Shown here: positions 8,721-38,637 of the stretch, piece by piece
How the letters are laid out: each line of letters begins with the position of its first letter
Position numbering within the stretch: the stretch's first letter is position 1
Source: an uncultured Chloroflexia bacterium
GTDB taxonomy: Bacteria > Chloroflexota > Anaerolineae > B4-G1 > SLSP01
NCBI GenBank assembly: GCA_963751345.1
Contig: CAVVUS010000014.1
Coordinates: 243,394-307,393 of the forward strand
Direction of reading: 5' to 3'
Length of the DNA stretch: 64,000 nucleotides
The notes under the pieces: generated by a model
What the model was told of the DNA's origin: nothing
Seen by the model: only the letters and a program-made list of their open reading frames with translations
Databases searched by the model: none
Translations under genes and position numbers: made by a program

Positions 8721-10251
8721 TTACTTGGCGTATTCGACCGCGCGGGTCTCCCGGATCACGGTCACCTTGATCTGACCGGGATACTCCATCGTCTCCTCGA
8801 TCTTGTGCGCTACTTCACGCGACAGCTTGAGCGATGCCAGATCGTCGATCTCACCGGGGCGGACGATAATCCGAATCTCGCGCCCGGCCTGAATCGCGTA
8901 GGACTCCTCCACACCATCGAAGGAGCGCGCAATCTCCTCAAGACCCCGAATGCGCTTGATGTAGTGCTCCAGGCTCTCCCGACGGGCACCCGGGCGCGCG
9001 CCGGAGATCGCATCCGCGGCCTCAACCAGAACGGACTCGAGCGACTGCTGCTCGACCTCGTGGTGGTGCGACTCAATGCAGTTGATCACTGCCTTGGGGA
9101 CCCCGTAGCGGCGGGCCAACTCGGCCCCGATCGTCGCGTGCGTGCCCTCAATCTCGAAATCGACCGCCTTGCCGATGTCGTGGAGCAACCCACCCATCCG
9201 CGCGATCTCGGGATTGCCTCCTACCTCGGCAGCTAACAAGCTGGACAGCTTGGCGACCTCGACAGCGTGTCCCAGTTGGTTCTGGCCATAGCTGGTTCTG
9301 AAGTATAGCCGACCCAGCAGCTTCATCAGCTCCGGATGCAGGTTCGGGACCTCAGCCTCGTAGACGGCCCGGTCAGCCTGCTCCTTCATGATCTGGTCCA
9401 CTTCCTTGGTCGCCTTCTCCAGCACCTTCTCGATGCGGGCCGGGTGGATTCGCCCGTCCGCGACCAGGTAGTGCATGGCCCGTCGCCGCGATCTCCCTGC
9501 GAATAGGATTGAATGATGAGATCGTGATCAACTCCGGCGTGTCATCGACGATGACATCCACGGCAGCCTTCTGCTCGAAGACACGGATATTGCGCCCACC
9601 ACGACCAATGATACGCCCCTTGAGTTCATCGTTGGGGATTTCGAGCGTCTTGGTGGTCAGCTCGGCAACCTGCTCCGAAGCGAGTCGCTGGATCGATGTG
9701 GTGATGATGTCGCGCGCTCGTTCGTCCGACTCCTGCCGCGCCCGCATCTCCTCCTCGCGCATCACCCGCGCCATATCCTGGCGTGTTTCCTGCGCGACCT
9801 GATCCAGGAGTACATTCCGGGCATCCTCAACCGTGAGATTTGCGATGCGCTGCAACTCCTCCAGGCGCTGCTCTTCCACCTTCTGCAGATCGTTGTGGCG
9901 CTTATCAAGTGCGCTCTGGCGCTTACTCAACTGCTGCTCACGCTGATCGACGCGTTCCTGTCGGGTGTCCAGCTGCTCACGGCGCTTCTGTAAGCGATCT
10001 TCCTCACGCCGTAACTGCTGATTCCGTGCATCGAGCTCGGCCTCCATCTCTTGCCGAGTCTTGAGGGTCTCATCCCTCGCGTTAAGCACGATGTCCCGAG
10101 CCTGTTTCTCTGCTTCCTCAAGCAAGCGGGCCCGCATCGCCTCCAGATTACCGAGCTCTTGCTGGAAACGCTGCTGGCGGACGAAGTATCCTGCTGCTCC
10201 GCCGGCGGCCAGTCCGATGATTAGTGCAATGACACCAATAAGCCACTCCAT
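8721..10251 (-). CDS. rny: Ribonuclease Y (frameshift near 9478, probably an assembly error)
   Basis: TM plus coiled coil; KH motif [13 protein letters not shown]; HD motif LLHDIGKA; C-terminus [20 protein letters not shown]. Confidence 0.95.
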
Positions 10252-10321: not shown

Positions 10322-10897
10322 TCATAGGAGAATCCGCGACGGGCCAGTCGACCAACGAGGCGACGTCGGAACTCGTCGGGCGGCTAAGTTGCTCAAGCGC
10401 CGTGCCTGTTCCTGCGCCACTTTTGTGATAGCAGCGACCTCGTCGTAGTCTTCAAGGGCAACCTCTATCGCATCCGAAGCGATGCCCTTCTGGCCCAACT
10501 CATATCTTAGCATCCTACTTCCCCGAGGGCGGAAACTAGCCCGGTTGTCGCGCCAATAGCGGGCGAAAGCTTCATCGTCAACCAGCCCAACGCGCTTCAA
10601 ACGGACGATCACTTCTTCGATAACGTTCTCCGAAGAACCCTTATCTGCCAGGTACTCCCGCAACTCAGCTTCGCTGCGCGGTCGGTATGTGAGATAGTCC
10701 AACGCTCTGCTGTGGGCTTTCTCGATCACGTCGGCCACGTCAAGCTCGGCGATGACCTCATCGGATAACCACGAACCCACCTTCAGATGCGCGGCAACAG
10801 AAACCGCCAAGCCAAAAGCAAACTCACCATCCAGGTAGACATTCACCCGGTCCTTGGAACGTTTCTGAGGCTCCAGCGCCGTGATTCTTCCGGCCAT
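10322..10897 (-). CDS. recX: Regulatory protein RecX (C-terminus probably frameshifted)
   Basis: ITALEPQKRSKDRVNVYLDGEFAFG, ALDYLTYRPRSEAE, LVDDEAFA, ELGQKGI. Confidence 0.9.
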   Translation of the reverse strand: MAGRITALEPQKRSKDRVNVYLDGEFAFGLAVSVAAHLKVGSWLSDEVIAELDVADVIEKAHSRALDYLTYRPRSEAELREYLADKGSSENVIEEVIVRLKRVGLVDDEAFARYWRDNRASFRPRGSRMLRYELGQKGIASDAIEVALEDYDEVAAITKVAQEQARRLSNLAARRVPTSPRWSTGPSRILL

Positions 10898-10955
10898 ACC
10901 TATCCTAACGGCTGAACGTCGAAACATGTGGACGTGAGCACGTCTACAGAAACAC

Positions 10956-10988
10956 AAAAACGGCTATGGCAGACTTACCATAGCCGTT
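10956..10988 (-). terminator. Intrinsic terminator/attenuator upstream of recX
   Basis: AACGGCTATGG...CCATAGCCGTT stem plus U-tract on the minus strand. Confidence 0.85.
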
Positions 10989-11405
10989 GAGCACGCGGGC
11001 CGCCCCCGCCCTGAAAGGCAAACCTGGCTAAGACATACGAATGTCGTCGGAGACATCCATGCCGCTCGGGTCACAAATCTTCCTACGAGCGACCGCCTCC
11101 GAAAACACTCCCCTCGAAAACGTTCAAACACCTCGACGTTCTAACGTCAAAACGCTTGAACGTCCGAACGTCTCAACGTTCCCTGTCAGAGCCATCCACA
11201 TTCCAGACTGAACCATGGGCGTTCCCACAGCTTGCGATTTCCACAACAGCTAGACTCGTCTACCACACGGATCCAGTCCCGACTTCGATGTCCCGGTGCA
11301 CAGGCCGCGAACTCAGGCACATACCCTGTTCACACGCAAACACTTTACAGCGGTAAAGTCACCAAAACATCGTGACGCGTCGGGTTGCTCCATCACCTCA
11401 TCCGC
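10956..11405 (-). ncRNA. Candidate large structured RNA or leader of unknown family
   Basis: No credible ORF; many nested helices with minus-strand G-U pairs; TAGAAT hexamers at 11406-11420; ends in a terminator. Confidence 0.5.
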
Positions 11406-11504
11406 ATTCTATCTATTCTACACTAGTCTTGGATAAAAGGAAGACCCGCACGCAACACGCGCGCGGCGACCTGCCGCACTCCGCATGAGGTGCGTCGCGT
11501 CGTC

Positions 11505-11532
11505 TTGCCAATATCGACGATCTGGGTATAAT
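11505..11532 (+). promoter_or_regulatory. sigma70-type promoter of tRNA-Thr
   Basis: TTGCCA-16 bp-TATAAT. Confidence 0.75.
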
Positions 11533-11545
11533 GTTCGGGCTAAGC

Positions 11546-11618
11546 GCCACCCTAGCTCAATCGGCAGAGCAGACGCTTCGTAAGCGCCAGGTTCTGGGTT
11601 CAATTCCCAGGGGTGGCT
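11546..11618 (+). tRNA. tRNA-Thr (anticodon CGT)
   Basis: Acceptor stem GCCACCC/GGGTGGC, D-arm GCTC/GAGC, anticodon loop TTCGTAA, T-arm CTGGG-TTCAATT-CCCAG; CCA not encoded. Confidence 0.95.
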
Positions 11619-11620
11619 CT

Positions 11621-11650
11621 AAAGCCCCGGCAGCATTCGGGGCTTTTTTC
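11621..11650 (+). terminator. Intrinsic terminator after tRNA
   Basis: AAAGCCCCG...CGGGGCTTTTTT. Confidence 0.85.
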
Positions 11651-11672
11651 TTATAGGGGAATCGTGCAACCA

Positions 11673-12686
11673 ATGCGGATCAGGCGGCTGGCGAACCAGC
11701 TATGGGGAGGGTTGGGTGACCAAAGGCTTGCCCTTCTGGCCCTGGTCCTCCTGTCAATCACCCAGATTGCCGCCTTCATCCTTCCCCAGATCCCCGTCTC
11801 GTCGGACCAGAGCGTGCTGTTCAATCGCTGGCTGGCCGAGTTTCGTCCACGATTGGGCGAGGCCGCCCGCCCCCTCGCAGCGTTGGGCCTTCTGACAATC
11901 CGTGCTTCATACCTTCTCCGGGCGATCCTGGCGTTTTTCGGCCTGCTCGTCGCGGCCAACTTGGACCGGCTGCGTGAGATCCGGCGCGCTCGGACCCCGA
12001 TGCCCAGGCAGATCGGGCGAATCTTGATCTGCATAGGTGGCCTGCTGATCATCGGTGGTTGGGCGGGCCAAATGAGTGCGGGTTGGCGCGACCCGGAGGT
12101 CATCGCGTGGCCCGGCGCGGAGATCGCCGTTCCGGACCACAATCTGTCGCTCCCGCAACCCTCCGGCCCGCTCGGTGTTTGGCGCGGGGGCTATGGCTAC
12201 TATGTCATCTCCCGAGGCCAACGCATCGGGCTCGAGATCCAGGCCGCCGACGATGCAGGCGACAGCCTCCCGCTCCTACCGGCGGTGGGCGAAGCCCCAC
12301 AGCCAAGCTTGCGGCTGGCTTTCACGACGGCAGAGCCCGAGGCATTCTTCGCCATTCAGGAAGCCGGCCTGATCTTTCGGCTGAACCAGATTGCTGACAA
12401 CATCCAGGTGCAAGCGTACCGCAGCGCCAGCGGTGAGTTACTCACCGAAGTTCAGCTCGACGGCAACGCGACATCCACGCTGCAGCTTGACGGGACCAAA
12501 GTGACCATCGTCCAGACCCTTCTCCCACGCTATGAAGTGATCTATAATCCAGGTGCCGCTCTTGAGGGCAGTGGGATGGTGCTCTTCGCCGTGGGCGCGG
12601 TGCTTGGTACATTGCACAGCGCTCGGCGGCACGTGAGACGAAGCTTGCTGGACGAAGCGTCAGAGCAGCACGAGACGACGGGGTAG
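11673..12686 (+). CDS. Membrane protein with topology resembling a ResB-like cytochrome c biogenesis protein
   Basis: Three N-terminal TMs with a LPQ motif, an extracytoplasmic beta region, and YNPG before the last TM. Confidence 0.45.
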   Translation: MRIRRLANQLWGGLGDQRLALLALVLLSITQIAAFILPQIPVSSDQSVLFNRWLAEFRPRLGEAARPLAALGLLTIRASYLLRAILAFFGLLVAANLDRLREIRRARTPMPRQIGRILICIGGLLIIGGWAGQMSAGWRDPEVIAWPGAEIAVPDHNLSLPQPSGPLGVWRGGYGYYVISRGQRIGLEIQAADDAGDSLPLLPAVGEAPQPSLRLAFTTAEPEAFFAIQEAGLIFRLNQIADNIQVQAYRSASGELLTEVQLDGNATSTLQLDGTKVTIVQTLLPRYEVIYNPGAALEGSGMVLFAVGAVLGTLHSARRHVRRSLLDEASEQHETTG

Positions 12687-38447: not shown

Positions 38448-38502
38448 GCACCCCACAACCACATACCAGGCAGGACGATCGACCTGCACTGTGGGCTGGT
38501 GC

Positions 38503-38616
38503 ATCTCCTTTCCAAACACGGGAGGCGTCGCCGTTTCCGACGAAACCCTATTGCCCAACGTCCATGGACCGTCCGCACAGATCGTGCTCAGCCTGTAGGC
38601 GCATTGGGTCGGAGAT
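38503..38616 (-). promoter_or_regulatory. Moco-class riboswitch aptamer lacking P3
   Basis: P1 ATCTCC/GGAGAT; P2 CCCAATG/CGTTGGG; AGGG; P4 with GAAA loop; GCCTCCCGTGTTTGGAAAGGAG signature; upstream of the moa operon. Confidence 0.88.
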
Positions 38617-38637
38617 TGACCGTAATCCGCACCCGGG

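Follow-up and report, generated by a model that had tools for sequence, protein, structure and literature searches.

An uncatalogued structured RNA upstream of recX and rny, most likely an attenuating leader built around a hairpin recognisable across the Anaerolineae

The protein-gene-free region between tRNA-Thr(CGU) (plus strand, 11546-11619) and recX (minus strand) in an uncultured Chloroflexia bacterium encodes a real, folded and uncatalogued RNA of ~450 bases. This RNA is most likely an attenuating leader of the recX-rny operon, built around a hairpin that is recognisable across the Anaerolineae. The studied DNA, a 64-kb window, is part of contig C14 of the 5.4-Mb source genome (G000). 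In many bacteria RNase Y, encoded by rny, initiates the decay of most mRNAs, and RecX acts as a restraint on RecA; both proteins therefore need careful dosing. To our knowledge, the control of RNase Y and RecX outside Bacillus and Escherichia coli is largely unknown, and we know of no RNA regulator described in Anaerolineae. The promoter-to-terminator RNA described here probably sets the amount of transcription that reaches recX and rny, and it offers a concrete handle on the control of the two genes: a promoter, a class-wide terminator and a candidate long-range antiterminator that is open to compensatory mutation.

The RNA lies on the coding strand directly upstream of recX, and two genes follow it:

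10322-10897 (minus strand): recX, with its ATG at 10897, the first gene downstream of the RNA (Pfam RecX_HTH1, 3.3e-20; RecX_HTH2, 1.5e-12)
8721-10251 (minus strand): rny, encoding RNase Y, the second gene, 70 nt after recX (Pfam RNase_Y_N, KH and HD)

The order recX then rny is found in all 15 loci examined. We found no promoter-like or terminator-like site in the gap between the two genes, and a consensus scan of the minus strand from the promoter of the RNA to the end of rny revealed no other promoter-like site. The next terminator after the leader's own is at 8664-8647, past the end of rny. In the assembly, rny is present as two overlapping open reading frames (9373-10251 and 8721-9476), and near position 9480 the source genome carries one base more than its closest relative, G002. 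This 1-nt indel may be a genuine frameshift, but in a metagenome-assembled genome an assembly error is more likely. The element is single-copy in the genome. It does not occupy a recA-recX intergenic position here: recA is on a separate contig (C26), and a divergent tRNA-Thr gene lies upstream of the leader.

The tRNA-Thr(CGU) unit (11505-11646, plus strand) has a near-consensus promoter, TTGCCA-16-TATAAT, which matches at 11 of 12 positions, and ends in a terminator of its own (11621-11646); the gene is divergent from the leader's promoter. The same tRNA-Thr gene lies upstream of the leader in most genus members. A G+C-rich hairpin with the conserved U-rich tail CUUCCUUUU sits immediately upstream of the leader promoter (11446-11466, minus strand) and could end minus-strand transcripts arriving from upstream; G002 has a different hairpin at the matching site. 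On the plus strand, a 357-codon open reading frame without a Pfam match is listed at 11613-12686. As listed, the frame begins within the last bases of the tRNA gene, and translation therefore probably initiates further downstream.

Folding of the 465-nt region gives -197.0 kcal/mol on the minus strand (z -5.77), a value that none of 100 shuffled sequences equals, compared to -131.3 kcal/mol on the plus strand (z -3.51). A preliminary description, made from the letters of the DNA, had proposed a large structured RNA at this position that would be new to Rfam, and conservation, covariation and strand asymmetry all support that proposal. Its statement that the region holds no credible open reading frame is borne out as well: the seven small ones present are without Pfam matches. 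At gathering scores, Rfam 15 reports just the tRNA-Thr gene and a Moco (molybdenum/tungsten cofactor) riboswitch in the 64-kb window. The latter is a side observation, an aptamer at 38489-38626 on the minus strand that scores 63.8 bits against a gathering score of 36. When the search is relaxed to E<=10, two chance-level 15-bit matches, far below threshold, appear in the region. No Rfam family, including 6S, OLE and raiA, thus matches it, in line with the earlier reading that signatures of RNase P RNA, tmRNA and T-box are missing. Across 40 related loci, Rfam finds nothing but tRNAs. A divergent RNase P RNA, tmRNA or 6S RNA was considered and rejected, since all three occur elsewhere in the source genome at scores above the cut-off (contig C22, 257.5 bits; C30, 152 bits; and C10, 68.4 bits, respectively).

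Among 19 distinct sequences from the genus, the RNA measures 343-630 nt from its predicted start to the terminator. Four parts are kept within the genus: a helix that closes the 5' end (P1), a short box, a covarying hairpin (hairpin B) and a helix that encloses a variable domain. In the source genome, the promoter, the RNA and its terminator are laid out as follows, from 5' to 3' along the transcript:

11415-11444 (minus strand): promoter, consisting of TCTTCCTTTT at 11444-11435 and a -10-like TAGAAT at 11420-11415
11400-11407 (minus strand): P1 5' strand, AUGCGGAU, at the extreme 5' end of the predicted transcript, pairing with 11272-11265
11273-11399 (minus strand): variable 5' domain inside P1, ~100-330 nt in relatives, with length and sequence depending on the species
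11265-11272 (minus strand): P1 3' strand, AUCCGUGU, the partner of 11400-11407
11244-11252 (minus strand): box, UAGCUGUUG, complementary to the terminator 5' strand at 10989-10981; candidate antiterminator
11213-11230 (minus strand): hairpin B, CUGUGGG-AACG-CCCAUGG, seven pairs with a variable loop
11185-11195 (minus strand): 5' strand of the enclosing helix, AUGGCUCUGAC, which surrounds the variable 3' domain and pairs with 11034-11026
11105-11184 (minus strand): ACGUU-rich insert with a long G-U-rich stem, in G000 and G002 only
11047-11102 (minus strand): nested helices UCGGAGGC/GUCUCCGA and GUCGCUCG/CGAGCGGC of the variable 3' domain, present in G000
11026-11034 (minus strand): 3' strand of the enclosing helix, GUCUUAGCC, pairing with AUGGCUCUGAC
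10951-10989 (minus strand): intrinsic terminator, AACGGCUAUGGUA/UGCCAUAGCCGUU plus U-tract, with a stem that is invariant in the 19 genus sequences

The promoter blocks, TCTTCCTTTT and a -10-like TAnAAT, are invariant or nearly so in comparisons of 8 and of 19 genus sequences, and transcription is predicted to start near 11408. By eye, a homologous promoter, TTGTCA-16/17-TAAACT, is present in several other genera of the family. P1 is formed by nucleotides 2-10 of the predicted transcript and a segment 0-18 nt upstream of the box. Its sequence differs by lineage, with variants that include GCGGAU/AUCCGU, GUAGGCU/AGCCUGC, GUAGAC/GUCUGC, GCCGUG/CACGGC and GGUUGUC/GACAAC. Because the 5' ends scatter in a whole-length MAFFT alignment, P1 pairs are not countable there, and we instead compared cognate with non-cognate duplexes. 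Cognate strands bind with a mean of -10.3 kcal/mol versus -7.6 kcal/mol for non-cognate ones, and in 12 of 19 sequences at most one of the 15-18 non-cognate partners binds as well as the true one. P1 was not found in four of the 19 genus sequences.

Hairpin B is 100% paired in the 19 genus sequences, with four pairs changed on both sides, and it reaches -10.9 kcal/mol when two extra closing pairs are counted. Its sequence resembles that of the class-wide recX hairpin described below. The enclosing helix is paired in 92.1% (GGCU/AGCC) and 96.0% (GAC/GUC) of cells in the genus alignment, where its changes are one-sided only; by eye, GAU/AUC in three species is a compensatory version. The terminator consists of a 13-bp stem (10988-10959; -20.6 kcal/mol, z -5.9) followed by UUUUUGUGUU. 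It ends ~55 nt before the recX ATG, which confirms the strong terminator previously placed about 60 nt before the gene.

All ten helices named in the preliminary description are present on the minus strand at their expected places, yet they differ in how well they hold up. The hairpin UUGUG-GAAAU-CGCAA exists but is weak (-3.0 kcal/mol, with 74 of 200 shuffles as good), and the helix GACUGGAU/GUUCAGUC, present in the source genome, shows two uncompensated mismatches by eye in G002. The stem of 20 bp with many G-U pairs (~11168-11112) is strand-specific as claimed, folding at -30.3 kcal/mol on the minus strand versus -15.6 kcal/mol on the plus strand. This stem and the nested TCGGAGGC/GTCGCTCG are indeed there, but in a stretch confined to G000 and G002. 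The insert is missing from the 17 other genus sequences, and the stretch that carries the nested helices aligns poorly outside the same two genomes. Part of the anatomy first described is therefore lineage-specific ornament. By eye, some eight ACGUU motifs recur in the insert at intervals of ~8 nt, and G002 has further AACGUU-like motifs between the terminator and recX. Tandem Repeats Finder reported nothing in the insert at score 30, and a tandem-repeat reading was rejected as no array was reported.

The recX/rny upstream regions of relatives display both conservation and, in hairpin B, covariation, as one would look for in a functional RNA of the kind first proposed. BLAST finds the region in 12 of 21 other genus genomes and in none of 19 genomes outside the genus; an exact-pattern scan adds nine genome and four metagenome loci, mostly duplicates of known ones. 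An RNA model built on the conserved core (R1) matches 17 of the 21 genus genomes, 16 of them genuinely. Two R1 matches, L039 (G021:C22) and L040 (a second match in G004), were discarded as coding sequence; the former is a long coding array of GGCTTCGACAGTTGGGCGGAT-like repeat units. Under stricter filters, R1 has no match in the 49 genomes that represent 19 other genera of the family. As far as sequence searches of this kind reach, the conserved core of ~100 nt is confined to one genus. Every genuine genus locus displays the same order of promoter, RNA, terminator and recX.

The terminator hairpin is far more widespread than the core. We sampled DNA upstream of recX from four more genus genomes, 16 other genera of the family and 48 genomes of other Anaerolineae families. 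All 41 family-level sequences have a hairpin of the form CGGCUAUGG-loop-CCAUAGCCG 15-65 nt ahead of the recX start, at a spacing that usually leaves space for a ribosome-binding site only. A homologous hairpin, (A/G)GCUGUGGC-loop-GCCACAGC(U/C), occurs in the rest of the class and is usually followed by a U-tract. A search for 7-bp stems within 135 nt of recX, with a 5' strand fitting G[CG]YRYRR, recovered the GCYRYGG form in 37 of 48 Anaerolineae genomes outside the family, a few of these automatic picks being other stems, and in merely 2 of 20 genomes of other Chloroflexota classes. An 8-bp version selects 70 of 89 sequences, among which at least nine picks are not the recX-proximal stem. In this 8-bp set the pair types covary: U-A 49, C-G 10 and U-G 11 at position 3; A-U 31, G-C 34 and G-U 5 at position 4; and U-A 53, C-G 9 and U-G 8 at position 5. 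By eye, the U-tract is absent after the hairpin in G008, G017, G005, G014, G083 and G023, which speaks against attenuation.

The exact pattern GGCTATGG-N3-10-CCATAGCC was also sought in 401 class genomes. It matched 13, nine of them outside family f1 with one of the nine matches adjoining recX, and a reversed-pattern control matched about as many genomes. A k-mer search between the box and the hairpin gave TAGCCTG as its top 7-mer, in 6 of 18 representatives, a count that does not exceed the shuffle maximum. An open-frame scan for noncoding span upstream of recX in other families was uninformative in these G+C-rich genomes.

The neighbours upstream of the leader vary between genera, and the leader remains beside recX. 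The upstream gene is recA in 13 of 48 loci from other families, as assigned by a tblastx cluster with a Pfam RecA match on two members. These loci point to recA, hairpin, recX, rny as the likely ancestral gene order. We also considered the leader as a decayed recA remnant and rejected this idea: tblastx with recA 3' regions matched none of 40 family-f1 leaders at E<=0.01. The only match was to locus L068 of family f35, where recA truly lies upstream.

In many genera a copy of the hairpin 3' strand is found 140-330 nt upstream, complementary to the hairpin 5' strand and sometimes extending into the loop. This is the box, the candidate antiterminator. To count it, we took the longest Watson-Crick complement to the hairpin 5' strand 60-330 nt upstream in the 77 sequences with a usable hairpin, using the hairpin 3' strand and both reversed strands as control probes. 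Complements of at least 8 nt occur in 14 of 77 sequences versus 1, 2 and 1 of 77 for the controls, and those of at least 9 nt in 8 of 77 versus 0, 1 and 0. The 14 box-bearing sequences span nine families, and the box tracks the local hairpin variant (CCACAGC, CUGCAGC, CCAUAGCC and CUGUAGCC). Within the genus, box and terminator are paired in 90.4% of cells across the 19 sequences, with no two-sided changes and a G-G mismatch in three sequences.

Energetic comparisons speak partly against a switch built on this pairing. The box duplex is better than shuffles at p<=0.05 in just 14 of 41 family and 6 of 37 class sequences. In the source genome it reaches -12.3 kcal/mol, which is no better than shuffles (p 0.63) and much weaker than the terminator at -20.6 kcal/mol. 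In favour of a switch, minimum-free-energy folds of transcripts cut after the terminator 5' strand join this strand to the box in 8 of 19 sequences, including the source genome. Against it, the strand pairs elsewhere or not at all in the other 11, with the 5' end being the partner in six. In a single case, locus L080 (G091, family f8, ~281-298), the box overlaps the last codons and stop of recA, so translation of recA could mask it and couple the two.

We favour, with moderate confidence, the reading in which the region is a structured 5' leader of the recX-rny operon that acts by transcription attenuation. Of the two options left in the preliminary description, a large noncoding RNA or an attenuating leader, genomic context favours the latter: the terminator lies right next to the ribosome-binding site of recX, the promoter scan gave no second candidate, and this hairpin recurs in front of recX-rny across the class. 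The source genome has an intrinsic terminator in the form of a stable hairpin and U-tract. Transcription would start near 11408 from the conserved promoter, and the 5' end would be tucked into P1. After ~450 nt, polymerase would meet the terminator ~55 nt before recX. Given its strength, the majority of transcripts are expected to stop there as free folded RNA and a minority to read through, and recX and rny would be carried by these read-through transcripts only. The box (11252-11244), near-identical to the terminator 3' strand, could pair with the emerging 5' strand, prevent the hairpin from forming and so permit read-through. The read-through level would then depend on how far local structure holds the box or leaves it free. 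Of this model, the conservation of the RNA, its helices, the terminator, the lack of another detectable promoter and the recurrence of hairpin and box are observed, and the start site, the actual termination, the switch and what flips it are inferred.

By analogy with rny of Bacillus subtilis, our preferred guess for the signal is RNase Y feedback, in which the enzyme would cut or remodel the leader. The data agree equally well with a control of RecX dosage that descends from an ancestral recA-recX attenuator; the likely original place of the hairpin, between these two genes, hints that regulation may be directed at the amount of RecX no less than at RNase Y. A motif search between the box and the terminator reveals no sensor domain beyond the genus. 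With no sequence conserved between box and hairpin at this range, a protein, an RNase or a kinetic mechanism is a better candidate than a small-molecule aptamer. A bolder and more speculative version, which we consider doubtful, makes the hairpin and box a class-wide riboregulator of recA, recX and rny. Cleavage of the nascent leader by RNase Y between box and terminator would take away the antiterminator, so that termination would rise with the level of RNase Y. In the genus the module would have expanded to a 350-630-nt RNA that also accumulates and serves in trans, for instance as a decoy or adaptor for RNase Y.

The RNA is physically the 5' part of any transcript that reaches recX-rny, but a stand-alone RNA would equally well have a promoter of its own, a closed 5' end and a strong terminator. 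It could be a stable noncoding RNA with a role in trans, for instance in recombination or on RNase Y, with a terminator that incidentally insulates recX-rny and permits incidental read-through only. The conserved strong promoter, the P1-closed 5' end, the strong terminator and the very stable fold all accord with such an RNA, as does the way in which peripheral domains vary around a conserved core (343-630 nt in all), an architecture shared by many stable RNAs. Metatranscriptome contigs confined to the RNA point the same way. Two of these, one from each of two studies, fall wholly inside it: one covers 11025-11200 (176 nt, 95% identity) and the other 11148-11386 (248 nt, ~89% identity). The two metatranscriptome runs contained no contig of comparable identity on recX, and none of the sequencing runs contained half or more of the stretch. 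The contigs come from relatives, show neither ends nor levels, and RNA libraries may contain DNA, which makes them, for the leader and the stand-alone reading alike, a hint of transcription only. Gaps in contig cover over other parts of the stretch carry no information. We nevertheless think a stand-alone RNA unlikely, as the element is always attached to recX while its upstream neighbours change, and recX-rny would be left without another detectable promoter. The core, moreover, is absent from the other 19 genera searched with R1 (0 of 49 genomes, stricter filters), and just the promoter, box and hairpin persist more widely.

The attenuator could alternatively be passive, a constitutive terminator that descends from the recA-recX junction and holds both RecX and RNase Y at low levels, with a leader body that is largely neutral spacer grown by duplication of hairpin pieces and by inserts. 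Such a history would suit the unconserved middle of the leader beyond the genus, the restriction of the insert to G000 and G002, and the appearance of hairpin B and the box as copies of class-wide hairpin parts. The stem also keeps a purine/pyrimidine pattern, as would be expected for G-U drift under selection for stability alone. We find this account improbable given that P1 pairing is lineage-specific, that the promoter and core blocks are invariant in the genus, and that enrichment of the box is limited to the orientation able to pair with the 5' strand (14/77 versus 1/77 for the opposite-strand control). A DNA-level operator, an inverted repeat before recX bound by a dimeric repressor such as LexA, is very improbable. 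recX belongs to the SOS regulon in several bacteria and the repeat is conserved in sequence, but its arms change by compensatory and G-U-compatible substitutions and a U-tract follows most copies. The arms are 3 to ~80 nt apart, a range of loop lengths that favours an RNA hairpin over a protein operator. With one mismatch allowed, no conserved LexA (Cheo-type) box, GAAC-N4-GTTC, was found in 41 family and 48 class sequences. Scarcely credible is a hidden small-protein gene. Open reading frames of 40-66 codons exist on both strands of the region, but none has a Pfam match, one runs through the terminator, and the conserved blocks are broken by indels of 1-4 nt between species.

A literature search on RNase Y autoregulation, on recX and terminators, and on structured RNAs of Anaerolineae or Chloroflexi returned nothing on this element. 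The main texts of three large motif surveys (PMC5737381, PMC11109978 and PMC2864571), whose full motif lists are in the supplements, do not name recX, rny, RNase Y or Anaerolineae. For Chloroflexi, the last of these names just Chloroflexi-1 and pan. With 343-630 nt, many helices and no assigned biochemical role, the RNA is similar to OLE, raiA, ROOL, GOLLD and HEARO. Unlike those RNAs, whose Rfam models it does not match, it has a conserved core of ~100 nt limited to one genus, and it is fixed to one operon.

The attenuating-leader reading places the RNA beside terminator/antiterminator leaders such as riboswitch platforms, T-boxes and protein-dependent attenuators. Like them, it is a coding-strand 5' leader with an intrinsic terminator placed immediately ahead of the first gene, and a candidate upstream segment may pair with the terminator 5' strand. 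It differs in that the candidate antiterminator lies 140-330 nt upstream instead of being adjacent, and in having neither an Rfam match nor a sensor domain conserved beyond the genus.

The 5' UTR of E. coli rne is an autoregulatory leader of a ribonuclease gene. The recX-rny RNA resembles it and the leader of B. subtilis rny in being a long leader that precedes the gene for a main decay-initiating endoribonuclease. In B. subtilis, RNase Y is described as controlling its own mRNA through cuts in the rny 5' UTR and early coding region (PMC10303841). As presented there, that control works by cleavage and mRNA decay and not by termination (PMC10303841). In addition, recX intervenes between the leader and rny in the locus described here, and no sequence relation was found.

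The junction of recA and recX in E. coli is reportedly occupied by a terminator hairpin that lets a minor fraction of recA transcripts reach recX. The homologous hairpin between recA and recX in 13 of 48 Anaerolineae loci corresponds to this arrangement. The source genome departs from it: its recA is carried by a different contig, the leader comes with a separate promoter and a structured body of 450 nt, and the operon includes rny.
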